A stretch of 64,000 nucleotides of DNA from the IMG/VR virus record IMGVR_UViG_3300020050_012045, positions 1 through 64,000 of that record; one strand, given 5' to 3'. Source of the stretch: a virus. Lineage: Duplodnaviria; Caudoviricetes. Within the stretch, counting starts at the first letter, position 1. Every line of letters starts with the position of its first letter. Made by a program: the position numbers and the translations under genes. Positions 5,930-61,754 of this stretch are shown piece by piece. The notes under the pieces are model-generated. The model worked only from the letters and a program-made list of their open reading frames with translations, was not told where the DNA came from and made no database searches.

Positions 5930-6775
5930 ATGTCATTCTTTAAGCGCCAACCAACCGACGAACAATCCTCTGAATCTGAACAGCCAACCGAAGACGAGAC
6001 TTTGGATGAAGTGGAGGTCCGTCTTCATAAGGCCCAATACTATCGTGCAGTCCTCGATAACGACCTGTTTGGTGGCGACGAGTCAGACGTTGCAGCCCAG
6101 GTAAGCTCAGAATTCCGCGAGTTTGCGTTAACTCGCCTTCGAGTCCTTCTTGGTATCGAACAAGAACGAGTAGAGCCACAACCTGTAGAACTTCCGTTTT
6201 CGGAAGAACAGATTGAAGCTTTACAGATGTGGGCTGAAAAATTACTAAACAAACCAGCCCTGCTTCAGCAAACCTCACAGCAGCCGCAGGTTACTCCGGT
6301 GATGAGCAAGGTTGAGGTTAAGCCTCAACCAAGGTTTAGCTCAGTTCCACCACCCCAACCAGTGGCCGTAACCTCAAAACGTCCGGCTGCCAAAACTCCA
6401 CCTAAGAAAGAGACTATCAAGTCTAAATCAACCGCCAAGACGCCGAAGAAGGTAGCTAAGCAGGAAGACTTGCCCCCTGGTATTAAAATCGACGAAAATG
6501 GCGAGAAATACTTCGAGCAAGAAAAGGAAGTTGTTGACCAGTACGGCACGGTGGTTAAGAAGACCGTCAAGATGAGCATCAACGATCAGGCTGCACCGCC
6601 AATAAACGACCCCAACTACAAGCCTATGCCGTCTCCGCAAATGATGCAGGCGGTCAGCCAACAGATGGCTCAAGCAGGCATGGGCTTTGCTCAGGGGTTT
6701 GGATTGGGGCCTGAGATCCAGAAATTCATGAACACTGGCGTAAACGAAGTCGGACCAAACGACAGCGGAATTTGA
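5930..6775 (+). CDS. hypothetical protein with Pro/Lys/Gln-rich low-complexity linker
   Basis: ATG 5930 in frame with track ORF, avoids overlap with dut. Confidence 0.75.
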   Translation: MSFFKRQPTDEQSSESEQPTEDETLDEVEVRLHKAQYYRAVLDNDLFGGDESDVAAQVSSEFREFALTRLRVLLGIEQERVEPQPVELPFSEEQIEALQMWAEKLLNKPALLQQTSQQPQVTPVMSKVEVKPQPRFSSVPPPQPVAVTSKRPAAKTPPKKETIKSKSTAKTPKKVAKQEDLPPGIKIDENGEKYFEQEKEVVDQYGTVVKKTVKMSINDQAAPPINDPNYKPMPSPQMMQAVSQQMAQAGMGFAQGFGLGPEIQKFMNTGVNEVGPNDSGI

Positions 6776-6803
6776 TAAGCTATTCAATCAACAGGAGATT
6801 ACC

Positions 6804-7325
6804 ATGGCAGACAAACCAAAAACTATTCTTGAACGTGTCCAAAACCTTGAATCGAACGTCCAGTCAATCGCACAGGCTTTTAACCAGGTTGACGAACAAC
6901 GTCAAACGCTTGGCGAAGTCATCGAAGTGCTTCAGACCGCACTGACTGAACTCGGAGATGACTTCGCTGGCAAAGTTCAAAAGCGCATTGAAGATCGTCG
7001 CGAAGAGCAACGCAAAGCTCGTGACGCTCGGGCAGCCGAAGCGGTTAGTAAGATGGTTGCTGATGGTACATTGACGGTAGTTGATGCCGTAGCTCAGGAT
7101 TCATTCTTGGTTGGCCGTATTCTGGCCGCTGATGGTTCCGTTGTGTCTGCTCAGGCGCAAGGCGTGCTCGGTACCTTTCCACCAAACATGCGTGAGCAGC
7201 TGGTGGGCAAGACCGTAGGTGAGTCCGTGACTGACGCCGATGGCTCTAAGTTTGAGCTTCTTGAGCTGTACAAGTTCGATTCGCCTAAGACTTTGACAGA
7301 ACCTGAAGCCCAGCCAACTGCATAA
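6804..7325 (+). CDS. hypothetical protein: N-terminal coiled coil plus possible FKBP/GreA-C-like domain
   Basis: SD AGGAG; LGTFPPNMREQLVGKTVGESV resembles FKBP and GreA C-terminal motifs. Confidence 0.5.
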   Translation: MADKPKTILERVQNLESNVQSIAQAFNQVDEQRQTLGEVIEVLQTALTELGDDFAGKVQKRIEDRREEQRKARDARAAEAVSKMVADGTLTVVDAVAQDSFLVGRILAADGSVVSAQAQGVLGTFPPNMREQLVGKTVGESVTDADGSKFELLELYKFDSPKTLTEPEAQPTA

Positions 7326-7330
7326 ATTGC

Positions 7331-7359
7331 TTGCCACCGGCTATTAGTGTCAATAAGGT
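7331..7359 (+). promoter_or_regulatory. sigma70-like promoter, leaderless geometry; overlapping GCTATTA at 7340
   Basis: TTGCCA-N17-TAAGGT-N6-ATG(7366). Confidence 0.5.
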
Positions 7360-7365
7360 GGCATA

Positions 7366-9012
7366 ATGACCGATTCAACTCTCCGTCCATCTTGCCCCAA
7401 GTGCGGCAAGCCAAATATGGTAAAATCAAAGGCGCAGTCAGGTAAAGTTCGATGGACTTGCCAGTCTGGCGGAACTAAGACCCGGATTAGATGCTATTCT
7501 TCTGTAAATCCATGGGCTGGGGTACGCAAGTCTGCCGATGGAATTAAAGAAGCGTACGGAGCTAATACCAAAACCCCGCCTGGACCACCAGAGATTGCCA
7601 AGAAATTTGTCAAAAAGCTGGTGTCACCAACCAAGCGGTACATAGTGACATCCGCCCAAAACGGCACACCGATTAACAAGCCCTTCTTTGACTCTATTCA
7701 GGTAGCATGCAAGCGACTCAAAGCGCAATTGTTGGTGATTCCGTACCGCTACAAAAACCCCACTTCTGAGTGGACCGAATCGCAAGAAAACCATGAGTGG
7801 TGGACAGAAGAGGTGTACCCTTATCTGTGCAACACCAGAACAAAACTGAATCCCAACCTATTCATCCTTGGAGAAGTTAAGGTTCAACCAACTGCAAGCT
7901 CTCCCTTAACCGGCCTTGAGGGATTTACTGGAGCAGAATCAGGGATTGTAGGACATCCACGAGTTCAAGTGAAAGTGATTCCTGTTCCATCGGGTAAGAC
8001 GCCTAAGCTGATGGTTACCACGGGTTCTATTACCGTAAAGAACTACTCAGACTCTAAGCAGGGGGCAATGGGTGAGTTTCACCATTCGTTTGGAGCGGTC
8101 ATTGTAGAGGTAGTAGGCAATACGTTTTTTGTTCGCCAGTTATTGGCCGACAAAGACGGATCGTTTATTGACGGCTCAACCCTATACACTCCCACCAAGT
8201 ACGTTAAGGCACAAAGGGCCAAGTCACTGGCAATGGGTGACAGTCACGTGGACGTGATCGATGAAGGTGTCCTTAAGGCTACGTTTGGCAAAGGTGGGAT
8301 TGTCGAGGAGTGCGAACCTGAATACATTTTCGCCCACGACCTGGCTGACATGGGAAGCTGTAACCCGCATGAAGTTGGGAACGTGTTCTTACAGATCGCC
8401 AAGAACGCTTCAGGCAAGAACAAGATTCGCCAGGAGGTTTTGGCGGCATGTAATTTTATTGACCGCTACATCCCGCTAACTTCAACCCCAGTCATCGTAG
8501 GGTCGAATCATGATAACTTCTTGTCACGTCACATCGTGAATACTGATTGGCGGTCAGATCCTGATATGGACAACGCCAAGTTCTACTTGGAAACAGCTCT
8601 AGCTATGTTGGAGGGCACCAAGATGGCTCCAGGTGGGGCTACCTATCCGTCTCCATTCGCTCAATGGGCCAAGAAGCTTATTAAGCATCCAAAGCTTAAG
8701 GTTCTTGGTACTGGCGAGTCCATGATGGTTTTAGACGTGGAATTCGGACTTCATGGAGATAAGGGGCCAAACGGATCCAGAGGGTCGATTAAGAATATCG
8801 CTCGAATTGGTGTCAAAACAGTGATTGGTCATAGCCATACGCCAGGAATCGAAGGCGGGTGTTATCAAGCCGGCACCTCTTCACGTCGTGATCTGACTTA
8901 CGCTGCTGGGTCACCCTCAAGCTGGATGCATGCTCACGTCATCCAGTACGCCAACGGCAAACGGTCGCTACTATTCATTATCGACGGCAAATGGCGGTCA
9001 AGTGCCCTCTAA
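7366..9012 (+). CDS. T5 A1-like metallophosphoesterase/nuclease with N-terminal Zn ribbon
   Basis: 548 aa; VTSAQN, TTGSIT..NY, FHH, GDSH, HD..D, SNHD, HG..GPNGSRG, GHSH, PSSW, NGKR; N-terminal CPKC...WTC. Confidence 0.75.
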   Translation: MTDSTLRPSCPKCGKPNMVKSKAQSGKVRWTCQSGGTKTRIRCYSSVNPWAGVRKSADGIKEAYGANTKTPPGPPEIAKKFVKKLVSPTKRYIVTSAQNGTPINKPFFDSIQVACKRLKAQLLVIPYRYKNPTSEWTESQENHEWWTEEVYPYLCNTRTKLNPNLFILGEVKVQPTASSPLTGLEGFTGAESGIVGHPRVQVKVIPVPSGKTPKLMVTTGSITVKNYSDSKQGAMGEFHHSFGAVIVEVVGNTFFVRQLLADKDGSFIDGSTLYTPTKYVKAQRAKSLAMGDSHVDVIDEGVLKATFGKGGIVEECEPEYIFAHDLADMGSCNPHEVGNVFLQIAKNASGKNKIRQEVLAACNFIDRYIPLTSTPVIVGSNHDNFLSRHIVNTDWRSDPDMDNAKFYLETALAMLEGTKMAPGGATYPSPFAQWAKKLIKHPKLKVLGTGESMMVLDVEFGLHGDKGPNGSRGSIKNIARIGVKTVIGHSHTPGIEGGCYQAGTSSRRDLTYAAGSPSSWMHAHVIQYANGKRSLLFIIDGKWRSSAL

Positions 9013-9379
9013 AGAGACATTAGAAGCCGACCTTCGCGATGCCATCCGCCTAGCATACGCTATTGGTTCGGAAATCGAGGCGATCCGATTCAGAATCCAA
9101 ACCGAAGAGATTATCTCCAAGGATTTGTTGGCTCAACTCTGGAACAACAAAAAACAGATACAGGCCGAGTTGGCACAAGATGTGATTAATATGCTTGAAG
9201 TTAAACAGTTCATTTACGAACGCAAACACATTAAAGAGCTAGTTGTCAGGAATCAAACCCATCTAAAGGCTAGCAGCATGGCTTTAGACAAAAACATCGC
9301 AGAAAAGCGAGCGACAGAGATGAAGATGGAATCGATCTTGAAACAAATTGGCCAATTTGGTAAGGTAATGAACCTATGA
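9002..9379 (+). CDS. hypothetical coiled-coil protein
   Basis: Probable GTG start at 9002 in frame with track ORF 8930; GCTACTA at 8967 upstream. Confidence 0.65.
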   Translation: MPSKETLEADLRDAIRLAYAIGSEIEAIRFRIQTEEIISKDLLAQLWNNKKQIQAELAQDVINMLEVKQFIYERKHIKELVVRNQTHLKASSMALDKNIAEKRATEMKMESILKQIGQFGKVMNL

Positions 9380-10452
9380 GTGATTGCTCTACATTCAAAT
9401 TCAAACTGAAGTCATCTGGCAAGAGCCTAAAACCTCTTGCTGCTAAGGTGAACTACGTTTGGAACTACTGTAATCGAACTAGCTACACCGCTATCCGTCG
9501 TGATTATAAGTGGTTGAGCGGATTTGATTTGAGCAATTTGACAGCCGGATCTGCCAGAAATCTAAAACTTAACGCCCAGACGATTCAATCCGTCTGCACG
9601 CAATTTGTTCAATGCAGAAACCAAGCGAAGAAAGCCAAGCTTAAGCCTCGGTACGTCACGGGCAGGAACAGGAGCCTAAGCTGGATTCCGATGAAATTCG
9701 ATGGTTTCAAAATCACCAACGATTCCGTTAATTTCATGGGGAAATCTTACCGTTTCTACAAATCCCGTGAGATCGAAGGTGAAATTAAAACCGGGGCGTT
9801 CGTCCAGGACGCCGTAGGCGACTGGTGGCTAACAGTAACTTGCAAAATCGAGACGAAGTCAACCGGGAATCGTACGCCCGTAGGTATCGATCTTGGCTTC
9901 AAATCAATCGCTGTCACTTCTGAAGGTGAAGATTTTGTTAACCCTAAATTCACCCAGAAGTACGCTGACAAACTGGCTAATGCTCAGCGATACCGCCACA
10001 AAAAGGCGGTTACCCGACTTCATCGGAAAATTGCACGAAGTCGTGCTGATAACCTTCACAAAATTTCACGTCAACTGGTTGATAAATATGGAAAAATTTA
10101 TGTAGGAGACCTAAAACTCAAAGCTTCTAAATCATCGAACGATTCAAGTTACCGTGGTTTAATTCAAATGCTAACCTATAAAGCCAGTAGGCTTGGTCAG
10201 CAGGTTCATCTCGTACCCGAGATGGGCACCACAGTAACTTGCAGTTTTTGTCTGGAGAGGACTGGGCCGCAAGGCCAGAGTGGACTCTCTGTAAGAGAAT
10301 GGACTTGTGACGGTTGTGGACGAAGTCACCTGCGTGATCAAAACGCAGCTTGCAACATTCTCCGGTTGGGATTACAACTGCCTAAGACTTCGTGCCTGAC
10401 TACGGTTGGGTCGAATGAGGGGTTTACTGCGAATAATGGTGGAAAATCATGA
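9376..10452 (+). CDS. tnpB: TnpB-family RNA-guided endonuclease (IS200/IS605 OrfB) with non-canonical RuvC-II
   Basis: TFKFKL/VWNY N-terminus, RuvC-I GIDLG, NLHKISRQLV, IYVGDL (E to G), VPE..TTVTCSFC, WTCDGC, RuvC-III RDQNAACNI. Confidence 0.92.
   Translation: MSDCSTFKFKLKSSGKSLKPLAAKVNYVWNYCNRTSYTAIRRDYKWLSGFDLSNLTAGSARNLKLNAQTIQSVCTQFVQCRNQAKKAKLKPRYVTGRNRSLSWIPMKFDGFKITNDSVNFMGKSYRFYKSREIEGEIKTGAFVQDAVGDWWLTVTCKIETKSTGNRTPVGIDLGFKSIAVTSEGEDFVNPKFTQKYADKLANAQRYRHKKAVTRLHRKIARSRADNLHKISRQLVDKYGKIYVGDLKLKASKSSNDSSYRGLIQMLTYKASRLGQQVHLVPEMGTTVTCSFCLERTGPQGQSGLSVREWTCDGCGRSHLRDQNAACNILRLGLQLPKTSCLTTVGSNEGFTANNGGKS
10389..10440 (+). ncRNA. Candidate 3' end of TnpB omegaRNA (hairpin plus guide)
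   Basis: Hairpin TTCG-t-GCCTGAC-TACG-GTTGGGT-CGAA (10389-10415) at the 3' end of tnpB, where omegaRNAs lie; boundaries inferred. Confidence 0.4.
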
Positions 10453-10694
10453 GTGATTTGAATGTAACCGCCGATGACGTCAAAGATGCAATTGAGAACG
10501 ATCCGGATTTTATTGCCTTGGCCAGGTTCGATTGTTCCCTAGCTAAGTTCGTTGAGCGGTACCCTGACGGGGCTCCTTCTAACGTAATGATCGCTAAGGC
10601 GCTTTGTACCTCGGAAGAGGACGTAGAGAACATCTACCAGGAAGCTATGAAGTTCTTGAAAATCGCTTTCACTCAAGAAACGGACATTGACTGA
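10449..10694 (+). CDS. Stand-alone sigma region-4-like HTH protein
   Basis: SNVMIAKALCTSEEDVENIYQEAMKFLK resembles sigma 4.2 (T..EIA..LG.S.E.V..I...A..KLK). Confidence 0.6.
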   Translation: MSDLNVTADDVKDAIENDPDFIALARFDCSLAKFVERYPDGAPSNVMIAKALCTSEEDVENIYQEAMKFLKIAFTQETDID

Positions 10695-11100
10695 GATGTG
10701 GTGGCAGCCGATAAACCCTAGTCTTTCCGGGGCATCAACAGGCTGGGGTGCCACCGACGAGGGTGAACAAACGCCAGAGATGGCGTACTGGGACGTGCAC
10801 GACTGGACGGGGCATAAAATTGGCCGAGTGCCTGTTCCGAGTGAAGCTTTAGGTCCAAAGCTGGACGATCTGTGCATGATCCCGGGGTTTAAGGCTAGCT
10901 GGGCTAAGTACGTTCTCATGTACCGTCCTGAGACCAAGACATACGAAAATATCGACGGCACAGTGGAGTTTAGGCTGTTCCCGGCAGCAACCAAACCTAA
11001 GCTAGCGGCTGATTGGTGCAAGAAGTGTGAAATGCAGGGGCAGTTCGAGCGTACAACGCTTATGTGTCCTGGGTGCCGATGCGTGATTGGAGGATTCTAA
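10687..11100 (+). CDS. hypothetical protein with C-terminal Zn ribbon
   Basis: CKKC...CPGC at C-terminus; start may be ATG 10696. Confidence 0.65.
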   Translation: MTEMWWQPINPSLSGASTGWGATDEGEQTPEMAYWDVHDWTGHKIGRVPVPSEALGPKLDDLCMIPGFKASWAKYVLMYRPETKTYENIDGTVEFRLFPAATKPKLAADWCKKCEMQGQFERTTLMCPGCRCVIGGF

Positions 11101-11278
11101 GATGACGGTTGAGCAAGTGGTTATTGATTACAAACACTGGCAACGCATGACTGAGTTTGGCTCTGACACTAAGTTAGATTTCTGGCTTGATATCCTGTGG
11201 TCTGAATTGACGGATGAGCAGATTCAGGAAGTTCTGCTATTGCTTCATCCAAGCAAGAGTGCTACTGTCCAGGAATGA
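11087..11278 (+). CDS. small hypothetical protein
   Basis: Fills the gap; stop overlaps dnaE start (ATGA); start may be 11102. Confidence 0.55.
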   Translation: MEDSKMTVEQVVIDYKHWQRMTEFGSDTKLDFWLDILWSELTDEQIQEVLLLLHPSKSATVQE

Positions 11279-14200
11279 GTCTACGTAACTTTATTTCCCC
11301 ACATGTTCATCAGATGTCGTTCGATTCGGCGTCTACCCCTACAGAGTTTGCGGAAAAAGAGATTGAGCTTGGAACTGGTGCACTTGTGTGCACAGACCAC
11401 GGATTCATGGGAGCAAACTCTGAAGTCTACGATCTAGCCAAAAAGCACAAACTGACCCCGATCTTAGGGATCGAAGCGTACCTCAGAGACGACAATTGCC
11501 CCATTCTGGAAAAGCGTGGGATTGAAAAGGAGAAGGGCGGGTATTCACATTACTCCAAGTATTGCCATTTCTGCATGCATGCGATGGATGAGACCGCGCA
11601 CAACCAGCTGTCTATTCGATTATCAGACGCATTTTCGGATCGCGGCGAACGCCATGGTTCCGAGATTAAGCCAATTTGGACTTGGGCTGATGTAGAGCAT
11701 CTTGGTCAATACAACGTAACCGCCTCGGCGGGGTGCCTTATCGGAATCGCCAGCCGTCATCTGATGAACGGTCGAGCGGATATTGCCGAAGATTACTACA
11801 CCAAGATGCGCGGGTCCGTTAAGCCCGGGAACTTCATCGTAGAGATCTTCCCTCATGATTGCTCGACCTACTATGAAAAGGGCGTATTCCTTACGTTCTC
11901 TGATGGAACAAAAAGCAAGTACAGTACGACCAAAAAGCTGCGAATCAATTTAGACGGAAAAGAGCTGGAGTTGCCAGCAGCTGATTTTGACTCAGGATTT
12001 CATAAGTTCAAGACTCAACCAACTTTAATCGCCTATAAGCACTACCAAAAGTGGATCGATCTTGAGCCAAAGACAGTAACAGCGTGCCTCTCAATCGAGG
12101 GGTTTATTGAGAACCCATGTACTGAGTGGGCGGGAGGGACGGATTATCAAAGAGGTGCGAATCTCTTCATGATGCGTATGGCCGAAAAATACGGCGACAA
12201 GATACTCCTGTCTGACGATGCACACTTTACCGATCCGTCTCAGCATGAGATTCAAACTATGAAGCTGACGTCAAGCGGGGGAAACTGGAGGTTCCCTTTG
12301 TCGTACCATCGTCAAACTTCACAGGAAGCTTTTAATTTCCTTAGCAGCACACTAGGCATCTCCGAGAAGACGTTCGAGGGATGGGTTGACAACTCTTATG
12401 AGTTTCGGGACAAGTTTAAGGATTTCAAGTTTACTGACAAAATTCAGCTCCCAACATCTAGGTACCCCACAGATACCGTCGCTCATTTGAAGAAACTAAT
12501 TGAGAAGCACGGTCGGATGCGCTGGAACGATCCAGCATGGGTAGCTAGACTTAAACAAGAGATCACTCTTTTTCGAGACAATGGAAAGCAAGATCTGCTT
12601 CCGTATTTCTTTTTGGCCGAGGAATGCGTCTATCAATATGTGAAGCAAAGAAAACTACCTGGACCACTTCGTGGAAGCTCCGGTGGGTCCGCAATCGCAT
12701 TCCTTCTCGGGATCACTCATCTCGACCCTATCAAGCATAATCTGTCGATCGATCGCTTCATAACTTTAGATCGTATTCAATCAGACAAATGGCCAGACGT
12801 TGATATGGATTTTGGCGATCCAGACTTCTTTAAGCACCCAGAGACAGGGTGGCTTTTTACTGAGTTCGGGGAGCGTGCAGCCGCTATTGCCACCAAAACC
12901 ACCATGCGTCTGAAGTCGACAATCAAAGACGCAATGCGCTCAAGGTACGGAGAGGTTGCTTATGACATTCAAGTGCTGTGTAAGAATTTACCTGACCCGC
13001 CACAAGGCGTAACGGACGAAGATTTTCTGTGGGGGTACGTGTCAGAGGACGAAAAAGAGGTTAAAGGACTATGGGAAGAGTCAAAACCTTTAAGAGAGTT
13101 TGCTGAACGAGAACCCCAGGTCTGGGAGGTGGTTAAGAAAGCAATCGGCCTAACTAAGGGGTTTTCCCGTCATGCTTCTGCCTTTCTTGTCTCTGAGATC
13201 CCGATTAAAGAGTTCATTCCAACTATGGTTGTCAGTGGAGTGCGAACAACTCAATACAACATGACAGGAGTTGAGGCTCGCGGCGGCCTCAAGATGGACT
13301 TCCTTGGGCTTTCCACCTTGAATGACCTGGAAGATTGCATAAATTCAGTACAGGCTCGCACAACTGGACTGATTACTGAAGCTGCCACACTTGATGAAAT
13401 CAAAGTCCCCGCTCACTTCCTGGTTCCCTTCAAGAAGCAGCTTCACTCGATCTGGGATCTCCCTGAAGAGGTGGAGGTGTTCCGCGATTTATGTCGAGGC
13501 GATACAGAGACAGTATTTCAGCTATCCACTGCGAGTGCTATCAAGTGGCTGCGTGAGTTCAAGAACCCTTTAGAGGATGGAACTCCTGCCATCAACACAA
13601 AAGAGGGGATCGCAACTTTTACGGCACTCGACCGCCCTGGACCGCTAGACGCTTTTGTTCAGACTGACGACGAAAAACAGATCAACATGCTTCAGGAATA
13701 CGCTCGCAGAGCAAGAGGGATGGAGCCAACAGGCGAGATTAAGGCACTTTCCTCCTTGCTCAAGGAGTCTTTCGGCATTCTTATTTTTCAAGAAAGCTTG
13801 CAGCGGGTATATCAAGAGCTAACCGGGTGTGACGGAATCAAGGCAACAGAGTTCCGTACAAACATTGCAAAAAAGAAGATGGATAAGGTAGAAGCTGCAT
13901 ACCCGTTTTTCATGGAAAATGCCTCACCCAAAGTCGGACGCGCCGAAGCTGAGAAAATCTTCCAAAACCTTAAGGTTTTTGGAAGATATGGGTTTTGCCG
14001 GGCCCATGCACGCGGCTACGGTGAGATTGCTTACGCTTGCGCCTTCCTGAAACGCTTCTATCCGCTTGAATGGTGGACAGCAGTTTTGAAGAACGCCAAG
14101 AAGGACAAGATCATCGAGAAGTTGTGGTCACACGCAAGTCACATGGTGCTCCCACCAGATGTCCAGCTGTCTGGCGAGTTCTTCCAAATCGAAGGCACCA

Positions 14201-47820: not shown

Positions 47821-50297
47821 TTATTGTCCGCGCGAGCAGGGCGATATGGTTGCCCCTGTGGGGCCGCTTGAACATCAGCCGGCATATTCTTTTTCATTTC
47901 GTTAATAGCCTTAACAGCTTCCTTGCCAGCCAATCTAGCGAGGGCATCTGTCGCCATATTAGAGGCTGAGGTCATTACAGCCAATTGAAGTCCAGCAGCT
48001 GCTGCGTTCTCATTAAGGATATTAAGCATTTTCTGATTTGCATCACCCGGAGCGCCAGCTTCTTCTGTTAGTCGTTTGTAGCTAGCCGCTCCAGCCGCAA
48101 AAACATCCCCAACGGTTTTTAGCGTAGTCGATAAGGTCTTCAGGTCTGTCATCATGTTCTGCACCTGCATATTGATAGCGCTGGTTGCAGTTCCTGATAC
48201 CTGATTCTTAAGACCTCCCTTACCTGCGTTAAAGGAATCAAGATCCGACAATCCACCGATTGAGCGCATCCCACCCTCAAAGTCCATTAGGTCGCCACCG
48301 CCGAGCCGAGACTTACCAAGAGCCGCCGCATCGCGTTGAGCGCCTTCGTTCCCCTTAAGGGCTGCAAAGAGATCGCCACCTGTGCCTTCAAGGAGTTTAG
48401 CGAGCCGTTTAGCTGGAGCCGAGTTGCCGGAAGAAAGAACAGAACCGAGTCGCTTAGATCGATCGGCTAGCGCTTTTTGTGCCTGACCTTGGCCAATGCC
48501 AAAAATAGACAGGGAGTTATTTGGATCTTGCTTGCCACTAGCCGCTGACGCAAGATCTGCAAATGAAGCATTAGCAAGGGTTTCGATCTCTTCAATTGAG
48601 GATCCGTCACCCATGATAGTTGACGCCGAACCAAGGTTGCGAGACGCCATGAATGGGTTTGATTGTTGGATTCTATCCATCAAACCAACACCGCGAATGT
48701 TTTCGTCGATTCTTCGGCCAGCACCAGGACCACGACCAACGTCAGAGGAATACAGTGCCCCCAGAGTATTCCCGGTCATGCCGTTTGCGCCAATAGTGTT
48801 GGCGGCGACCGCTTCGCCGATCTTTTGAAAGAAGGTGATGTCCGCTTCCTTCAGGCCATTCTTCATGCCGGAGGCGATTACTTTTTCAAGCAGTTGGGTT
48901 CCGGATCCACCCGTTTCGGCCATGCGGCCAAGAATTCCACCAGCCGCCTGGGAATCAAACCCCTTATTGGTTAACCCCATCACTTGAGGAGTTAGGTGTT
49001 GAGCTTCGCGATCTCCAAATTGACCACGTAACGCCCCGGACATTGCAACTGTTTGACCAGCGTCAAAACCCATCCCGCCGCCACGTGAAATCATTCTGAG
49101 AGCAGCAGAATCACCGCCCATTGTGCGAGATGCATGAGCACGAAGTCCGGCAGTGGCTTTGCCAACCTCCAATCCCTCAATAGCTGCTCTATTTTTTGCC
49201 GTTTGTGACATCAGGGATAGTGAGTGACTACCCTCTTCACCGGCCATAGCCATAGCTTCGCCAGATTGAATTTTTTGCTCAAGCATCTGTTGTTGTTGCT
49301 TGTTGTTGGCTAACCCGGAAAAGCCAGAGCTAGCTAGCCCCCCACCTAATCCGGCTGCAAATGGAGCCCCGATACCTGTTGCTGCTCCAGCTGCTCCAAT
49401 CGCCACTCCACCAACTATTTTGGCGGCATTCATTATGCCACCTGAGGTGTTCTGCATGACAGCGCCCTTGAGCTTGTCATCAATATTCGTTGTATCGTCA
49501 AGGGTTCTGTTGAGAACTCCTAATCCATTCCCTACGATATTTCGCTGGACAGAACCGTCTGGATTTAATCCTTGTTTGCCGTCACCAAAACCAACGGTAT
49601 TGCCCATGACAATACCTAGTTGGCCAGATTTAGCCATTGCTCGGGCGCTGTTGTACCCACTTTCGGATCGGTTGGAGTTTTCTAGTCCCCCAAACTTAGA
49701 GGCTGTAGCGTAATCACCGGCACCACTTACTAAGCCACCAAAGGTTCCCCATGCCGCACCAACAGCTCCAAGGCCGCCAGCCACATTCGCCCAATTTACG
49801 TTAGGTTTCCAGGTGGGTGCGCCTGGACCAACGAAACCGTTACCCATGCCAGAGCCGAGGTTCCCCCCGCCGCTACCATTAGCCGAGATAGCTCCTGGCG
49901 GCGCCCCGTAACCAATCATCCCGCCGCCACCACCATATCGGGCCAAACCCATCCCGCCGTTGGATCCGGCGCTGCCAGTCCATCCGCCAGATTGAGGAAT
50001 CCGAGCTAAGGTGCGTGAGTAGTTATTGAGGGTCGCCTGTCCGCCCTGGCTAAGTTCCTTATGGAATCCCTGAGCTTCCTTAGTTAGTCCGGCAAGTGCC
50101 CCACGGATACTGTCCAGATGTTTAGAAAACGAATCTGGGTGGTTCTGGTTGGATTGTTTGCCGATAGATACCGTAGCTAACGAGGCGGATAATTTACTGG
50201 CTTGCTGTGTCAGAGCCGCCATTTGAGCTTCTAGGTCTTTGAAGCCCTTATTGTCGGACTTCATGACGATATTTAGTGATAGTTCTTTTTCTGACAC
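47817..50297 (-). CDS. Tail tape measure protein
   Basis: 826 aa Gly/Ala-rich helical protein after two chaperone-sized genes. Confidence 0.75.
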   Translation of the reverse strand: MSEKELSLNIVMKSDNKGFKDLEAQMAALTQQASKLSASLATVSIGKQSNQNHPDSFSKHLDSIRGALAGLTKEAQGFHKELSQGGQATLNNYSRTLARIPQSGGWTGSAGSNGGMGLARYGGGGGMIGYGAPPGAISANGSGGGNLGSGMGNGFVGPGAPTWKPNVNWANVAGGLGAVGAAWGTFGGLVSGAGDYATASKFGGLENSNRSESGYNSARAMAKSGQLGIVMGNTVGFGDGKQGLNPDGSVQRNIVGNGLGVLNRTLDDTTNIDDKLKGAVMQNTSGGIMNAAKIVGGVAIGAAGAATGIGAPFAAGLGGGLASSGFSGLANNKQQQQMLEQKIQSGEAMAMAGEEGSHSLSLMSQTAKNRAAIEGLEVGKATAGLRAHASRTMGGDSAALRMISRGGGMGFDAGQTVAMSGALRGQFGDREAQHLTPQVMGLTNKGFDSQAAGGILGRMAETGGSGTQLLEKVIASGMKNGLKEADITFFQKIGEAVAANTIGANGMTGNTLGALYSSDVGRGPGAGRRIDENIRGVGLMDRIQQSNPFMASRNLGSASTIMGDGSSIEEIETLANASFADLASAASGKQDPNNSLSIFGIGQGQAQKALADRSKRLGSVLSSGNSAPAKRLAKLLEGTGGDLFAALKGNEGAQRDAAALGKSRLGGGDLMDFEGGMRSIGGLSDLDSFNAGKGGLKNQVSGTATSAINMQVQNMMTDLKTLSTTLKTVGDVFAAGAASYKRLTEEAGAPGDANQKMLNILNENAAAAGLQLAVMTSASNMATDALARLAGKEAVKAINEMKKNMPADVQAAPQGQPYRPARADNK

Positions 50298-50318
50298 AGG
50301 CTAACCTCGGGGTGGGGC

Positions 50319-50870
50319 TTAAAGATTGCTTTTGGGAATGCTCAGGCTATCCTCATCCAAACCCTCGCCAGATATGCTAAAGTCCTCAAACTCAGGGGGT
50401 GGGACCGCTTTTTCCACCAATGGGGCCGATTCCACCGCTTTTAAGGGGGAGGGCAGGGATTCTGGTACCCCCTCGAACGCTGTTTCTATCGCCTTGGAGA
50501 TTTCGGCCCCGTCTTTGGCATTGCTTACAATTTCTTTAAGCGACGCCTTAGGTTTGAGCTTTGCTGCAATGATCTCCATTTGAGTCGCGATTTCGGAGTC
50601 TTCGTCCTTGAGGCGTTTTGCTCTTTGTTCTGGGGTTTCCAGCAGATCACGGACGGTTTTGGCCCGTTCTTCGTGCTCCATTGACGAGTAATTCGATTCA
50701 AAATAATGGGTTAGGACGAAGTCGACAGGGAGGTCGTAAACAACGTGTAATGGGGTGTTAAACGACTCGGAATACCAGCGATGGACAGACCGTAAGAAAG
50801 CAGCCGAATCAGGCTGAATGACTGATTGCAGGGCCTTGATTTGGATGGTCTTGAGAAGATCGCTGGCCAT
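50319..50870 (-). CDS. Putative tail assembly chaperone (T-like)
   Basis: Position before tape measure; RWYS..F.TPL. Confidence 0.55.
   Translation of the reverse strand: MASDLLKTIQIKALQSVIQPDSAAFLRSVHRWYSESFNTPLHVVYDLPVDFVLTHYFESNYSSMEHEERAKTVRDLLETPEQRAKRLKDEDSEIATQMEIIAAKLKPKASLKEIVSNAKDGAEISKAIETAFEGVPESLPSPLKAVESAPLVEKAVPPPEFEDFSISGEGLDEDSLSIPKSNL
50322..50328 (-). promoter_or_regulatory. CAATCTT motif (putative late promoter)
   Basis: In the last codons of the upstream gene, 24 nt before the tape measure GTG. Confidence 0.6.
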
Positions 50871-50875
50871 TCAAC

Positions 50876-51271
50876 TTACAAAGCTTCTTTGGTTGTTTCT
50901 GCCTTTAGAGCTTCTTTTTGTTCTGGGGTAAGCTCTTTTTCACTAACAGCGTCGTTCTGGACCTTTTGAATACCTTTCCACACTTCAACCAGAAGATTCT
51001 CATCCACGAGGTCCAGGCCATTGCCGTATTCACTCCACCATGACGGAGCCTTAGTAATACTGACGTGACAGTCAGCGAGTGCGGTTGCTCGGGACTTCTC
51101 TTCGGACGTCTCAGCATTTGGGCCGAGATATTCACGCTTCCAGCGGTCGCGTGCCAGCATCTGGCGATGGCTAAGGAAACGTACAGCCCGGAACGAGCCC
51201 TTGTACGTTTCCTTGGTTTTGTCGCCTACTACGTGGATGTCAAATGGGGAATCTTCGGTCAGTGCAGCCAT
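50876..51271 (-). CDS. Putative tail assembly chaperone (G-like)
   Basis: Position; Y.G.F, AP.WW, D..L motifs. Confidence 0.6.
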   Translation of the reverse strand: MAALTEDSPFDIHVVGDKTKETYKGSFRAVRFLSHRQMLARDRWKREYLGPNAETSEEKSRATALADCHVSITKAPSWWSEYGNGLDLVDENLLVEVWKGIQKVQNDAVSEKELTPEQKEALKAETTKEAL

Positions 51272-51392
51272 GATAATTTCCTTGATTGTTGAATTAGCTC
51301 TAAGCTACAATAGCGTAGAGTCAAAACTGCCATTTTAATGACAGATAATTGCGTAAATTGGTTGGAATTGTGCCATTAAGATGGCAAGAAAG

Positions 51393-51399
51393 AAGATTG
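51393..51399 (-). promoter_or_regulatory. CAATCTT motif (putative late promoter)
   Basis: At the far end of the intergenic region upstream of the tail chaperone operon. Confidence 0.55.
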
Positions 51400-51400
51400 C

Positions 51401-51607
51401 GTGCGAAATCCAGACAGAATCGGACCATTTGTCGCTAAGCTGGCTGAGCTGTGGGCGGATTCACCTGATTTGCGGTTTGGGCAAGTTGTATCCATGCTTG
51501 AGTGCTACCTACCTAAGGGGGTGGATGGATTCACCTGTGAAGACCCACAATGGGAGACCGCGATGCAGGTAGCGATTAACCAGATTCGATTCAGCAAGGT
51601 GGTTTGA
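51401..51607 (+). CDS. YihD/DUF1040-like small protein
   Basis: MRNPDRI...L..LW...PDLRFGQ. Confidence 0.65.
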   Translation: MRNPDRIGPFVAKLAELWADSPDLRFGQVVSMLECYLPKGVDGFTCEDPQWETAMQVAINQIRFSKVV

Positions 51608-51610
51608 AAA

Positions 51611-52000
51611 GTGACTCATTCCATCCTTCTAACTCGATCTGAGCATCACTCGTTGCGTTTCCTGGTGGAGTATATCCAACGGCTGGCCATCGGGCGTTTC
51701 ATTGATACTGGAATGTTGGCCTTTGAGGACAAAATAGAGCTGATTATTAAGGCTTGCGAAGAGACAGGTCAGCTAAAGCAAGCCTTGAAGCAGAAATACG
51801 GTGCGTCATACCTATGCGACTTCGAGCCCCAACAGATATCTAACTTGGTTGAGATGATTGGAACTCTGACCCAAGAAGAAGTTGCAGAGTTTGTAACGCC
51901 TGAGCTAATTGAAGTGCTCGGAACCAGAGAATCCAGGCTTCAGTTCATTCAGAAACTGTCAATTGAGCCGCCAGAAGCCCCACCTGTCCGCCTGGATTAG
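51611..52000 (+). CDS. hypothetical protein
   Basis: 129-aa ORF. Confidence 0.6.
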   Translation: MTHSILLTRSEHHSLRFLVEYIQRLAIGRFIDTGMLAFEDKIELIIKACEETGQLKQALKQKYGASYLCDFEPQQISNLVEMIGTLTQEEVAEFVTPELIEVLGTRESRLQFIQKLSIEPPEAPPVRLD

Positions 52001-52194
52001 AACTCGAAGGTAATGACGCCACGATGCTCAACTGGCAAGTCTGGCTTGTCGGTTGGAATCTCTTCTAATGGCGGCTGTGGCAGTGGAAGCTGCAAGAACG
52101 GACGATCGTCTTTCTTGGGGCGAGTTCGCTCCAACCAGTCAATCATTGCGTCCAGGTCAGCCGCGTCACCCATAGATCCAAGATTGTTGGCCAT
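51997..52194 (-). CDS. small hypothetical protein
   Basis: GCTATTA-N6-ATG and TTGACT 35 nt upstream; RPFLQLPLP..RGVITFEF. Confidence 0.6.
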   Translation of the reverse strand: MANNLGSMGDAADLDAMIDWLERTRPKKDDRPFLQLPLPQPPLEEIPTDKPDLPVEHRGVITFEF

Positions 52195-52260
52195 GGCTAA
52201 TAATAGCTCTTTATAAAGACCAAAGTCAATACCCTGCCGAACTTATTTCAACAAACTTGT

Positions 52261-52289
52261 TTGACATTGAAATTTCTATGTGGCAGGAT
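52261..52289 (+). promoter_or_regulatory. sigma70-like promoter
   Basis: TTGACA-N17-CAGGAT; leader hairpin GGGC/GCCC and SD GGAG. Confidence 0.55.
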
Positions 52290-52325
52290 GTCTGAAGTCG
52301 GGCAATTAAGCCCTTGGAGTTACGA

Positions 52326-52547
52326 ATGAATAATTATGTGAAGTTCCCAGTCTCGAAGACGTTGTTGAACCGCTTGAATGTCACGGAAGGTAAGTTTGTT
52401 CAGTTGGTGAACTCAAACAAGCCAACCCGTGAATTGTCGAGTCAAACTGGTGCGTCGCAACGTACCATTCAAGAGAAGCGCCAGTTGGTGAAGCGTGAGC
52501 GTCAGAACCGCAAGAGCACGCCAACAACTACGCCGACCTCATTCTAA
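52326..52547 (+). CDS. small basic HTH-like protein
   Basis: PTRELSSQTGASQRTIQEKR. Confidence 0.55.
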   Translation: MNNYVKFPVSKTLLNRLNVTEGKFVQLVNSNKPTRELSSQTGASQRTIQEKRQLVKRERQNRKSTPTTTPTSF

Positions 52548-53297
52548 GCTATCCGCCTCTTCCAGCCCACGCTGACGAGTCCATTCGTCATACCCTTCGT
52601 ACTTATAAGTCAAGTTGCCAGCTGAACTAAAAGAATAGTTTGGTGGGCAGATTGACGGAGAACATCTACAGTTAGGATGTTCGCCCGCTAAACTAGGGAT
52701 ACCACTACCCTTTTTGTGGTACCCCTTGGAGATTTCAGACATCTTCCAAACTCGGGGTGTGACGCCATCAGGGAGCATATGCAAGGACAAGCACTCCCCG
52801 CAGCACTTGCCGTCACGGACGATTACAAAGAACAATGTTGGATCATCGATCCCGATCTTGGCAGCTGTGTGAACCACACCCTCAAAAGCCCCAGTCGACC
52901 GAGCCCGTTGAGCCTCGCTGTCAACTACTCTCTTGACCTCGAACTCAGCCTTATCCAAAATCCCCTGGACCATTTCGGTCAGGTTGACTTCGCTGTCATC
53001 TTTTTTAGTCTTCTCTTGGGTAATCAGGGTGTGGCGAAGGTCAGCTTCCATTCCGGTCTTGACGGCATCAAGGTAAGCCTGAGCTACCTCAATCAACGAG
53101 TCTTCGGTAGTTGGGTCAGGGTAACCGCCATGAGCACGAACTGATTCCCGGTACAGAGCGGGCAGAGAGTCGTACCCAATGTTCAGGCTGTTCTTCTCGG
53201 TCGGAAGAAACTGCTGGGTGATGACATCAAACATGTCCTTGATATAGCTGACTACCTTTTGGAACTGATGGCCTGGGCGTGGGTTTTTAGGTGGCAT
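52539..53297 (-). CDS. Head morphogenesis protein (MuF/SPP1 gp7-like)
   Basis: CxxC...HPNCRC; GCTATTA-N6-ATG upstream (53304-53310). Confidence 0.75.
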   Translation of the reverse strand: MPPKNPRPGHQFQKVVSYIKDMFDVITQQFLPTEKNSLNIGYDSLPALYRESVRAHGGYPDPTTEDSLIEVAQAYLDAVKTGMEADLRHTLITQEKTKKDDSEVNLTEMVQGILDKAEFEVKRVVDSEAQRARSTGAFEGVVHTAAKIGIDDPTLFFVIVRDGKCCGECLSLHMLPDGVTPRVWKMSEISKGYHKKGSGIPSLAGEHPNCRCSPSICPPNYSFSSAGNLTYKYEGYDEWTRQRGLEEADSLE

Positions 53298-53386
53298 AAG
53301 TTGTAATAGCCCTGAAACGATTTATTTTTAAATTGTTTAGCAATATTAACTAGATAGCTAGATTCGTGAATAGATACTTGAAACGA

Positions 53387-54235
53387 TTATCGTGGCCCAA
53401 ATCCACCCTTACGAACAGTCGGAACATCACGGACAGAGGCGTTCTCATCGTCCTTGGCCCGGTCTTCGTTCTGAAACACCCATTCGCGCTGAAGCTCTAG
53501 CTGGAATGGTCCACGAACCAGATTGACTTCACCAGTGACGACATTAACGTCTTTGTTGACTCGAATCTCATGCAGGATGCGGCTAACCGAGTAATACGGA
53601 ATGTATTGGTAACGGATTGAGCAGGTCACACCCCGACCGAGAACAGGGTCATACCCAGGGGATTTACCTGGGCGCCAGACGATGTTTCCGTTGGTGACTT
53701 CAAAGTCAACCCCTTGTCGGTACTTCTTGCCCCTAGCGTCCTTAAGAAGCTGAACAGATGTTACAGGGAAAATCATCCGGTCAGTACCAGACTGGTGATG
53801 CTCGAATTTCTGGCTGTTCGACACTCGGACAGGGTTGTCCTTGATGTAAACCCGATCTGCCACCTGGAACACAACCGGACAGTCGCAGTCGTGACCGTCA
53901 AAGCGCTTGTTGTAAAACCTCTGGACGGTCAAGTACGCCTTGGATTCATCGAAGATGCCGGCGTCCTTCCAGTCCTGGGAAGTTCCGTTGGAATAAAACC
54001 AACCCTCGGTTTCGCCAACGGTGTCAAAACTCATTCCGCCTGAACAGGTAGAGTGATTAGCATGAGGGCGAATGTCATCTGGAGATATTGACTCCTCGAC
54101 ACAGTAACTCATTGCTTCGTGAATGATTTCGACGCCATGAGACCTGATGAGATTGTCAAAAGCGTCGTTGTCAAACGAGACCGCCTCGAACGGAATTTTT
54201 ATATCGTGTCTTGTTGGATCTGGACGTTTCGCCAT
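53387..54235 (-). CDS. Head closure/neck-like structural protein
   Basis: FD.LI..HG, Y..GVDF.V..G.I.W, SIRY...P; late motif upstream. Confidence 0.55.
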   Translation of the reverse strand: MAKRPDPTRHDIKIPFEAVSFDNDAFDNLIRSHGVEIIHEAMSYCVEESISPDDIRPHANHSTCSGGMSFDTVGETEGWFYSNGTSQDWKDAGIFDESKAYLTVQRFYNKRFDGHDCDCPVVFQVADRVYIKDNPVRVSNSQKFEHHQSGTDRMIFPVTSVQLLKDARGKKYRQGVDFEVTNGNIVWRPGKSPGYDPVLGRGVTCSIRYQYIPYYSVSRILHEIRVNKDVNVVTGEVNLVRGPFQLELQREWVFQNEDRAKDDENASVRDVPTVRKGGFGPR

Positions 54236-54241
54236 GGCGGA

Positions 54242-54248
54242 AAGATTG
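54242..54248 (-). promoter_or_regulatory. CAATCTT motif (putative late promoter), leaderless geometry
   Basis: CAATCTT-TCCGCC-ATG(54235). Confidence 0.7.
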
Positions 54249-54312
54249 TCTAAAAGACTTAACTATTGAATATTGTTGATGTATTTATCGGAGGAAAAGT
54301 ACAGTGTGGGTA

Positions 54313-54341
54313 TTGACATGACCGGCTAGGTGCGATAGAAT
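54313..54341 (+). promoter_or_regulatory. sigma70 promoter, leaderless geometry
   Basis: TTGACA-N17-TAGAAT-N6-ATG(54348). Confidence 0.8.
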
Positions 54342-54347
54342 GACGAC

Positions 54348-54638
54348 ATGACAAAGCTCTTTAATCTAACCACGACGATAGTGCAAGCAGCGAGCGAATT
54401 TGTTCCGGCAGGTTATGTGGTAGAGTTCGAGAGCAAAGTCAGTCGCTTGACGATTAAACGCGGCGAGTTCCACTCATGGATAACCTTAAATATTCACAAT
54501 TCAATTGATTTGAAGGAAATCGTAACCGAACAAGTCAAATTTGTTGACACGCTGTATATTCATGCCAAAACAGAGCACGAGAAAACCGGCTTAAAACTTC
54601 TTTCTTACGAGATGGCAGCAGAAAGTGAGCCCAAGTGA
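54348..54638 (+). CDS. hypothetical early protein
   Basis: ORF directly after promoter. Confidence 0.65.
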   Translation: MTKLFNLTTTIVQAASEFVPAGYVVEFESKVSRLTIKRGEFHSWITLNIHNSIDLKEIVTEQVKFVDTLYIHAKTEHEKTGLKLLSYEMAAESEPK

Positions 54639-55276
54639 AACCAATCATAACCGATTCGTTTGGCACCCGATATTACTCCCACGGGATTCCACCTATTGAG
54701 CTGACAGTCAAGGGTGAGGATAAAGTCGTGGCCTGGGCCTGTGGCAAGTGCAAGAACGTCAAGCACGAAGACTTCGTACTAGCTTGCTGTGCAGAGGGGC
54801 GCATTTGCTGCAAGCCGGGATGTGACGAAAGCACTGAATACTCACACCTTACAGTTTGCAACAAGCACCGGACCGAAAGTGAACGGGAGCGAGAGCAAGA
54901 AGTCTTCGATAAAGCCACCAAAGTGTCTTGGAAGGATTACCCAGACGGCTGGCTGTACTCAGAGCACTTTGGCAAGTATTTTGCCAGTTTTGAGGACTTG
55001 GCAATGGAGTTGTCTGACACAGACCCAGAAGACTGGCCAGAGTATGTTTACGGATGCGACAAAATGACGCTTCATATTGATGCTAGGGATGTTATCGAGA
55101 ACGCTACCCAGGACTTCTACGAAGACGCGATTGATGACCTAGACGAAGATAGTCTGCAAGTTAAGCTTGATCAGTGGGTGGAAGCTCAGAAGCTAGAGTC
55201 TTATGAAGCTAACTACAACGTCGCTGTCACTTTGGAAGGCTTTGAAGAGATGATCGGAGACTTGGACGTAGAGTAA
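54635..55276 (+). CDS. hypothetical Cys-rich/acidic phage protein
   Basis: WACGKC..CC..C..C N-terminus, acidic C-terminus. Confidence 0.7.
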   Translation: MKPIITDSFGTRYYSHGIPPIELTVKGEDKVVAWACGKCKNVKHEDFVLACCAEGRICCKPGCDESTEYSHLTVCNKHRTESEREREQEVFDKATKVSWKDYPDGWLYSEHFGKYFASFEDLAMELSDTDPEDWPEYVYGCDKMTLHIDARDVIENATQDFYEDAIDDLDEDSLQVKLDQWVEAQKLESYEANYNVAVTLEGFEEMIGDLDVE

Positions 55277-55585
55277 TTAGATCAGTGCGTTCATGCGGTC
55301 GGTCATTGCGCTGTATTCGCGAACAGCCTCAGCCGAGTGAGCTACAACTGACGCTTCGCTCTTGCTCAGCTCAGTAATCTCCAACTCAGGATGACGAGTT
55401 TTGGCTACGTGCTTGGCGATAGCTGGGTGGCCACCGATTCCAAGGATTTTGCCCACTTTGCCATCTTTTAGGCCGGTGTGAACGACGCCAAGGCCGCCCT
55501 TTGCCATCGAATAAAACGCTTCTTGGTTGCCTAACATACCGATTTTCTTCGGTTTATTTGCCATTTGTTTGCTGTCTAAGTCCAT
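55277..55585 (-). CDS. small putative late protein
   Basis: ATG 55585 with SD GAGG and CAATCTT at 55604-55610. Confidence 0.65.
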   Translation of the reverse strand: MDLDSKQMANKPKKIGMLGNQEAFYSMAKGGLGVVHTGLKDGKVGKILGIGGHPAIAKHVAKTRHPELEITELSKSEASVVAHSAEAVREYSAMTDRMNALI

Positions 55586-55603
55586 GTGATACCTCTGTCG
55601 AGA

Positions 55604-55610
55604 AAGATTG
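55604..55610 (-). promoter_or_regulatory. CAATCTT motif (putative late promoter)
   Basis: 18 nt upstream of ATG 55585. Confidence 0.7.
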
Positions 55611-55619
55611 CTATGGAGG

Positions 55620-55648
55620 TTGACATCATAGTGGGGTTTTGGTATTGA
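55620..55648 (+). promoter_or_regulatory. sigma70-like promoter, leaderless geometry
   Basis: TTGACA-N17-TATTGA-N6-ATG(55655). Confidence 0.7.
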
Positions 55649-55654
55649 TTGGGA

Positions 55655-56002
55655 ATGAGCGAAACAAGTTTCAAATTTGAAATTACCGAAGCTCGATCGG
55701 GTAAAGTTGTCGATCATTGGGTTTGCAAGACCCGTACGCCAGAAACCACAATTGACGAGACGCGATTACTTTATATGGTAAAGAGTCGAACAACGTTCAT
55801 TCACACATGCCGACTGGTCTCTGACCTTGAGACGGTTGATATGTACTGGATGGTCGATCCAATGGGACGAATGACGCATTATTTCAGAAAGTTGGCTGCT
55901 AGCGCTCCTGAATCAGGCACTTGCCCAACTTGCGGTGATCGTGGTAGCTTTATACGCATGGCTTTAACCTGTCCAACACACGGAGTTTTCGGTGGCTGCT
56001 AA
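55655..56002 (+). CDS. hypothetical protein with C-terminal Zn ribbon
   Basis: CPTC...CPTH..FGGC. Confidence 0.65.
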   Translation: MSETSFKFEITEARSGKVVDHWVCKTRTPETTIDETRLLYMVKSRTTFIHTCRLVSDLETVDMYWMVDPMGRMTHYFRKLAASAPESGTCPTCGDRGSFIRMALTCPTHGVFGGC

Positions 56003-58230: not shown

Positions 58231-58640
58231 AACTAATCATTGCAGGACTTCGTGACTATACGCCGACTGACTCCGAAATGGACGAAGCGGTCAAGTTTGC
58301 GTTAGGCGAGACATACAAGTGGGGCAAGCCTTCGGCGGTCACCGAGGTTGTAAGTGGCAAAGCTTCCGGGGTTGATGCCGCTGGGGAAGCTTGGGCTAAG
58401 CGCAACAATTTGCCAGTCAAAGACTTTCCTGCTGACTGGGACAAGCACGGTAAGGCGGCTGGACCAATCCGCAACCGAGAGATGGCCAAGTACGGCGATG
58501 TTCTAGTTGCTTTTTGGGACGGAAACAGTAAAGGTACTGGGAGCATGATCAAAGAGATGAACGGGTTGGCAAAGCAGGTCTACATCTTTAAGCCTAAGGC
58601 TAAACAAGCGGACATTCCTAAGCCTCGGACCGGCTTATGA
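58227..58640 (+). CDS. YspA/DUF2493-like SLOG family protein
   Basis: IIAG.RDY, VVSG.A.GVD, FPADW..HGKAAGPIRN..MA, AFWDG.SKGT..MI. Confidence 0.88.
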   Translation: MKLIIAGLRDYTPTDSEMDEAVKFALGETYKWGKPSAVTEVVSGKASGVDAAGEAWAKRNNLPVKDFPADWDKHGKAAGPIRNREMAKYGDVLVAFWDGNSKGTGSMIKEMNGLAKQVYIFKPKAKQADIPKPRTGL

Positions 58641-60087: not shown

Positions 60088-60518
60088 GTATCTTATCAGT
60101 CTACTGCGACGGCTCTTCCCACGCCAAAGGCGGACTACCAATCGGCTGGGCGTTCTGCCTAGTGGTTGACAACCAGCTTTGGTATGCTAGTACCGGATGC
60201 TCTGAGTCTGGAACCAACAACGTAGCAGAGTTGACCGCTGCTATTGATGGCTTGGAAGCGGCTAAGCAGTTCCGCAAGGAAGGTCAATTAGTGGAACTGG
60301 TGTCTGACAGCCAGTACACACTAGGCAGCGCTACTGGGGCTTACGTAGCTGTCAAGAACGTTGAGTTGGTGCAGCGGCTTCAGGCCCTTTACAAGGAAGT
60401 ATGTTGGCGGACGAGGTGGGTCAGAGGGCACGATGGTGATGAGTTCAACGAGATGTGTGACGGACTAGCTAAGGCCGCCAAGCAAGCGACAGTTGACTCG
60501 CTTAAGGTGAAGAAATGA
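60084..60518 (+). CDS. rnhA: Ribonuclease HI
   Basis: YCDGS, TNNVAEL, SDSQY, WVRGH, NEMCDGLA. Confidence 0.94.
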   Translation: MSILSVYCDGSSHAKGGLPIGWAFCLVVDNQLWYASTGCSESGTNNVAELTAAIDGLEAAKQFRKEGQLVELVSDSQYTLGSATGAYVAVKNVELVQRLQALYKEVCWRTRWVRGHDGDEFNEMCDGLAKAAKQATVDSLKVKK

Positions 60519-61710: not shown

Positions 61711-61719
61711 GAAAACTCC

Positions 61720-61748
61720 TTGATAATTAGTAGCTTTTTAGATAGGCT
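61720..61748 (+). promoter_or_regulatory. sigma70-like promoter, leaderless geometry
   Basis: TTGATA-N17-TAGGCT-N6-ATG(61755). Confidence 0.7.
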
Positions 61749-61754
61749 ACGCGG

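Follow-up and report, generated by a model that had tools for sequence, protein, structure and literature searches.

A transposase-less TnpB with a rearranged RuvC-II site at an overlapping gene junction of a large phage: probably an active RNA-guided element with a homing-type life style

What does a tnpB gene do in a large phage when no transposase accompanies it and both its neighbours overlap it? The gene in question (9376..10452, plus strand; an intact, full-length open reading frame of 358 aa) lies in the first 64 kb, here called the window, of an IMG/VR phage record that is complete at 158,596 bp and has direct terminal repeats. It overlaps both neighbours by ATGA, as an earlier note on this DNA had seen, at 9376-9379 with the upstream reading frame, which ends at 9379, and at 10449-10452 with an 81-aa reading frame (10449..10694). 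The note had offered two functions, an active RNA-guided nuclease for homing or phage competition and a domesticated regulator acting together with the adjacent sigma-4-like protein. We favor the first: the locus probably harbors an active, transposase-less TnpB/omega-RNA (OMEGA) element that acts like a free-standing homing endonuclease gene, the predicted activity fitting the intact residues, the dN/dS values, the conserved RNA scaffold and the presence/absence variation described below.

The protein combines the OrfB_IS605 (48.1 bits) and Cas12f1-like_TNB/zinc-ribbon (61.4 bits) domains, both above the Pfam cut-offs, with a TnpB fold, and it matches phrog_506 (2.8e-59). The best PDB match of its AF2 model (pLDDT 88.9) in Foldseek is the ternary complex of ISDra2 TnpB (8h1j; TM 0.74, E 2.7e-22); residues 338-358, which are disordered in the model, are the read-through of the RNA scaffold. 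Relatives of more than 50% identity were all found in phage-like contigs, and those in bacterial genomes reach at most 47%. The 158.6-kb genome carries one tnpB copy. That the window lacks tnpA had been noted before, and this absence extends to the full 158,596 bp, in which neither a Y1 TnpA (PF01797) nor a serine recombinase (PF00239) was detected. Within 6700-11400 no plus-strand sigma-70-like promoter or terminator was predicted, which is compatible with a single operon, and an Rfam search over 8500-11500 returned only noise.

In an alignment with ISDra2 TnpB, D172 (9889-9891) and D321 (10336-10338) correspond to D191 and D361, respectively, and G244 (10105-10107) stands at the position of E278; E282 (10219-10221), the Glu of LVPE, lies seven residues ahead of C289, the first Cys of a C4 zinc finger (C289..C314; 10240-10317; all on the plus strand). 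This bears out what had been read from the letters: a Gly in place of the RuvC-II Glu, a Glu just ahead of the zinc finger and both catalytic Asp retained. The canonical D-E-D triad of TnpB is thus absent and the site fits the rearranged variant, since in RuvC-II-rearranged (RIIr) clades the Glu is replaced by Gly and a compensating Glu comes from after beta-5 as in RuvX; these clades are predicted to be active, and some of their branches are mainly viral (PMC10691335). The window protein has both the Gly at the RuvC-II Glu position and the conserved downstream Glu, and in the AF2 model E282 directly follows strand 276-281.

In an alignment of 55 homologues D172, G244, E282, the four Cys, R320 and N323 are invariant and D321 is conserved in more than 90%; the G244/E282 pattern is repeated in 25 IMG/VR relatives. 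Judged from these alignments, G244 with the relocated E282 is a clade trait, neither decay nor a dead site. The element is therefore best read as belonging to the IS200/IS605-related, RuvC-II-rearranged TnpB clade with Gly at the Glu position and E282 as the putative compensating Glu. By its described traits the protein would be a new member of a known and already catalogued clade, and RNA-guided cleavage of DNA is its most likely activity.

How tnpB came to lie where it does can be seen from relatives that lack it. One contig (L033) aligns with window 9237-9383 at 93% and continues directly with 10449-11882; the empty site is precise to the base, and the flanking genes overlap there by ATGA. 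In a second contig (L032) and in Myxococcus phage Mx1 tnpB is absent from the same junction with the gene order kept, and two more metagenome contigs carry the same insertion at 99.9% identity. The insertion is thereby shown to be polymorphic, with precise empty sites. On the best reading, tnpB appears to have entered the phage lineage recently at the ATGA junction of the coiled-coil and 81-aa genes. The overlaps, from which it had been concluded that tnpB is welded into an operon, do not carry that conclusion: the flanking genes already met at this ATGA before tnpB arrived, and the insertion duplicated it.

The upstream neighbour encodes a coiled-coil protein of about 125 aa (9002..9379, plus strand; listed as open reading frame 8930..9379) and ends in the TGA within the ATGA at 9376-9379. 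In contig L031 gene calling gives 125 aa, and in L032 the homologous 124-aa coiled-coil gene and the 81-aa gene's homologue overlap directly. BLASTP detected no similarity between the upstream 149-aa reading frame and its positional counterpart in Mx1. An apparent C-terminal likeness of the window's upstream protein to the upstream protein in contig L029 was dismissed as chance, as BLAST found no match. At the end of the 2.3-kb contig L031, positions 1965-2353 equal window 8918-8530 in reverse, directly after 10766, which is probably an assembly chimera.

The downstream neighbour (10449..10694, plus strand) is a resident phage gene outside the element that encodes a helix-turn-helix (HTH) protein. 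Homologues without tnpB are found in L033 (99% aa identity), L032 (73%) and Mx1 (40%); in Mx1 (OR576727.2, L027:8998-9240) the homologue is an unannotated 80-aa reading frame between the coiled-coil gene and a gene for a DnaE-like polymerase. The synteny of A1-like, coiled-coil, HTH and DnaE genes links the window phage distantly to Mx1. The A1-like gene (T5 A1 / DNA transfer, phrog_1745) encodes 548 aa in the window and 607 aa in a 99.9% identical contig (L030), in which a T-to-G change at window position 9010 removes the stop codon; the difference is either a polymorphism or an error in one of the assemblies. An IMG/VR search with the upstream A1-like protein returned no relatives.

Could TnpB be a domesticated regulator which binds without cutting and has the sigma-4-like protein as partner, in the manner of TldR or of dCas12f with its sigma factor? 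The 81-aa protein is probably a small sigma-70 region-4-like HTH protein: in an Atlas search with language-model features PF04545 is found in 22 of the 30 nearest clusters, while Pfam gave no match at E<=0.1 and the AF2 model (pLDDT 59.7) was too poor for a fold search. The start/stop overlaps on both sides would couple the three genes translationally, and the inferred guide finds a 10-nt seed match at the tnpB start codon, at the left junction, where binding without cutting is possible in principle. But the adjacency is not conserved, since L033, L032 and Mx1 have the 81-aa gene without tnpB and the sister tnpB copies (81-84% aa identity) lie at unrelated loci beside unrelated genes. Exapted TnpBs are inactivated (PMC10691335), whereas here all catalytic residues are intact and invariant; and the ATGA coupling was there before tnpB. 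Judged by gene order in these relatives, a conserved link between tnpB and the sigma-like gene does not exist; the partnership is refuted by this evidence, and we regard a regulatory role of this kind as very improbable.

The sister copies disclose more of the element's history. The closest TnpB (84% aa identity) is encoded in a contig (L028) that is 96% identical to window 50072-61803. There the element is inserted at the position of window 53308-53313, so that the window phage itself carries the empty site (53308..53328, plus strand), 21 nt of which are identical to the sequence following the scaffold in L028. Provided that the L028 element is active and the TAM fits, it would be able to cleave the genome of the window phage when both phages infect one cell. 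A third tnpB copy is found in contig L119, with its empty site in L029, which in turn carries a fourth copy elsewhere, start/stop-overlapped with unrelated genes. The tnpB copies are about 20% apart in DNA and the backbones of the window and L028 only about 4%, from which we conclude that these are old element lineages which landed independently. Comparison of L119:1128-1355 with L029:5931-6125 places the sister insertion 3 nt ahead of the stop codon of a 64-aa gene; in L119 the gene call is 75 aa long, the frame apparently running on through the right end of the element in reverse complement.

The insert in the window is bracketed by a perfect 10-nt direct repeat. The left copy (9376..9385, plus strand) contributes the start codon and first three codons (MSD) of tnpB, and the right copy (10449..10458, plus strand) overlaps the start of the inferred guide. 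TnpB and the 81-aa protein both begin with MSD because the repeat is duplicated. The chance of a 10-nt repeat at these fixed junction positions is about 1e-6, and the empty allele in L033 has a single copy, identical in 8/10 nt, the remainder being synonymous drift. In the three occupied/empty pairs the duplications measure 10 nt (window), 10 nt (L119, perfect) and 6 nt (L028). Repeats abutting the right end are also present in L034 (10 nt), L097 (17 nt) and L018 (10 nt), for which there is no empty allele for comparison. A 57%-identical phage copy (L114) has a perfect 12-nt direct repeat that lies 35 nt before the start and 10 nt past the scaffold end; the offset of 10 nt looks as if a bit of an earlier flank had moved along with the element.

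The two ends of these insertions differ in kind. On the right, the repeat copy lies in every case directly against the scaffold end; on the left, a leader of 0, 41 or 84 nt comes after the copy, and the leaders do not align with one another in BLAST, so that TnpA would find no conserved left end for binding. Terminal inverted repeats were not visible in the element ends inspected. The homology of the window tnpB to its sister copies begins a few codons inside the open reading frame; tnpB thus takes its start codon from the duplicated start of the neighbour and its stop from the neighbour's ATGA. Without a left end and without a phage TnpA, the window copy is unable to transpose alone. The missing left end, the target duplication and the in-frame start-codon fusion together make the element an architectural variant.

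Did the element nevertheless arrive as an ordinary IS1341-type insertion, by peel-and-paste with a host Y1 TnpA acting in trans, the repeat being a coincidence or a later event? The earlier note had held that relatives with a precise empty site and canonical IS ends would indicate just that; the precise empty site exists (L033), the canonical ends do not, for the left end is missing and the target is duplicated. A relative with 49% identity (L201:1094-2559) encodes a 136-aa Y1 TnpA and, immediately after it, a rearranged-type TnpB; its left-end and right-end hairpins match. The clade thus includes autonomous IS605-type elements, and these could act in trans. Canonical members of the same TnpB clade, among them chromosomal multi-copy ones (L129-131), have hairpins at conserved left and right ends and no duplication, and the scaffold end in the window resembles a canonical right-end terminus. 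What defines the IS200/IS605 family, however, is that its ends form hairpins and its target is not duplicated (PMC13565253), yet the three phage-borne pairs have duplications of 10, 10 and 6 nt. Of the two subterminal hairpins the window element has a degenerate equivalent at the right end and none at the left, its homology begins inside the reading frame, and the leaders of the phage-borne copies share no alignable left end. Arrival by this route is in our view distinctly unlikely.

The duplication is not general. When 90 loci of the wider clade were screened for flanking repeats against mismatched controls, the excess was small (repeats of at least 11 nt in 5 loci versus 0 in the controls), and several of the long repeats were hairpins common to left and right ends; the duplication therefore belongs to some elements and not to the whole clade. 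A literature search yielded no report of duplication-flanked prokaryotic TnpB-only elements; eukaryotic Fanzors ride on transposons that make duplications (PMC10711439). We tentatively propose, as a possibility that we hold to be less than even, that peel-and-paste is not how the phage-borne elements of this lineage come to new loci: they would use a pathway that is anchored at the omega-RNA/right end, accepts any 5′ end, even a truncation within the reading frame, and generates the 6-10-bp duplication. Such a pathway might capture the element at a staggered break that is then filled in, or it might run through one-ended strand transfer or target-primed copying, with end joining to resolve the product. 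Among the insertions, those in-frame fusions that preserve expression of the operon would be kept by selection, in the window via a borrowed start codon.

Inside the 3′ end of tnpB lies an omega-RNA-like scaffold, which is at the same time the right end of the element (at least 10354..10448, plus strand), and seven homologous elements share its fold. In the window the order is stem 1 (10363-10380), a CCUAAGAC linker, stem 2 (10389-10415), a GAGGGG motif, a weak stem 3 and a tail that closes the element. The layout common to the window and six relatives (51-84% aa identity) is stem 1, CCUAAGAC linker, stem 2, GAGGGA motif, an optional stem 3 and tail; it spans from the NIL codons to 10448, the short tail ending in AUC. 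Stem 1 shows covariation: over the seven elements 92.9% of the cells are paired, with compensatory changes in 4/7 pairs, as compared with 29-50% of paired cells in slid alignments used as control. The hairpin that had been noticed at 10389-10415 is predicted exactly there and is stem 2. The architecture of this putative omega RNA is shown to be conserved by comparison of the elements, and the window element has the structured RNA over the 3′ end of tnpB, followed by a putative flank-derived guide, that characterizes TnpB/OMEGA systems. An exact search for the scaffold in IMG/VR gave no matches. In L201 the right-end hairpin and cleavage site occupy the position equivalent to the scaffold end, which identifies stem 3 as the remnant of a TnpA-binding hairpin.

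The guide, placed by the earlier note at 10420-10439, has to be moved. That stretch aligns in six relatives with a conserved GAGGGAUU motif and the third stem, and is therefore scaffold and not guide. The sequence similarity among the copies ends at the scaffold tail, at 10448 (plus or minus 1 nt), and gives way to the local flank; the guide is therefore expected to start at about 10449. The inferred guide (10449..10468, plus strand) is the flank just 3′ of the scaffold and coincides with the first codons of the 81-aa gene. By eye no self-target had been found for the guide first proposed, and the corrected guide is likewise unique, a second match being absent from the 158.6-kb genome at up to 3 mismatches. 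Two observations count against the homing reading. The one empty allele of this site that was sampled (L033) differs from the guide at 5/20 positions, three of them among the first 12, and a consistent TAM did not emerge from the three verified sites, at each of which the 5 nt left of the duplication are different. The pentamer T[TA]G[GA]T, which recalls a TAM and occurs at all three sites 14-15 nt to the left of the duplication, was dropped because shuffled sequences did as well in 597/2000 trials.

That the element is instead an inert relic, a stranded and left-truncated insertion tolerated in the operon, the protein or RNA of which no longer works, we consider unlikely. The missing left end and the lack of a start or stop codon of its own are in line with a relic, as are the absence of TnpA from the genome, the degenerate third stem and a scaffold fold that is the weakest of the seven (z = -1.08). 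Yet the open reading frame is full length with every conserved residue kept, and tnpB is shown to be under purifying selection, with dN/dS of 0.11-0.19 in all pairs of close copies (three sister copies; dS about 1). Moreover, the N-terminal fusion is in frame, the element provides the downstream gene with a Shine-Dalgarno-like GGTGGA, and the insertion is identical across independent samples.

An active homing element is therefore the reading we retain, and from it we infer nuclease activity, an omega RNA derived from a polycistronic transcript, a TAM and homing. The scaffold would be encoded in at least the last 95 nt of the tnpB open reading frame and the guide in the first 16-20 nt or so of the downstream 81-aa gene. 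In a mixed infection TnpB would cut the tnpB-less allele of related phages, and recombination would then copy tnpB into it (non-restorative homing or marker exclusion); this is probably how the element persists and spreads.

The window thus offers a clear-cut case from nature, a large phage with a TnpB but no transposase, and occupied and empty alleles are at hand for three sister elements. With these pairs it becomes testable whether TnpBs with a rearranged site are active homing nucleases in phage populations and how copies without TnpA reach new sites. The recurrent target duplication, the fixed right end and the free left end contradict the textbook description of the family; if a second insertion pathway truly exists, it would help to explain the abundance of orphan tnpB genes. 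The idea of a regulator working with a sigma fragment fails when confronted with the relatives, and a wrong lead is thereby avoided.

Among known systems, the RIIr-5 and related clades (Altae-Tran 2023, PMC10691335) come close in the protein. They share with the window TnpB the Gly in place of the RuvC-II Glu, the downstream Glu predicted to complete the site, the C4 zinc finger, the RDxN motif of RuvC-III and the length of 340-390 aa, and they too have members with and without TnpA, some of them viral; target duplications or copies devoid of a left end are, in contrast to what we describe here, not reported in that paper. ISDra2 TnpB (8H1J, 8EXA, 8BF8; Karvelis 2021, PMC8612924) has the same overall fold (TM 0.74), an RNA scaffold overlapping the 3′ end of tnpB, a guide from the right flank and the biology of a homing nuclease, the last three being predicted for the window element. 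Identity to the window protein is only 18-23%, and ISDra2 retains the canonical RuvC-II Glu. Unlike the window element, ISDra2 is a complete IS: it has TnpA, both a left and a right end and a TTGAT TAM, and no target duplication.

With the IS1341 group, the tnpB-only elements of IS200/IS605, the window element has in common tnpB alone with a right-end/omega-RNA module; it differs from them in lacking a left-end hairpin, in the variable or absent 5′ leader and in the 6-10-bp target duplication. TldR and the sigma-associated dead TnpB/dCas12f systems likewise have a TnpB-family protein beside a regulatory gene, but theirs is a protein with an inactivated RuvC in a conserved partnership, whereas the window protein has an intact site and the relatives lack the partnership. 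In its expected way of life the element resembles the free-standing homing endonucleases SegF and Mob of T4-like phages (PMC13565253), nuclease genes wedged between conserved phage genes, the presence and locus of which vary among related phages and which are expected to cut the allele lacking the gene; the difference is that in the window element the target would be recognized by an RNA guide rather than by the protein.
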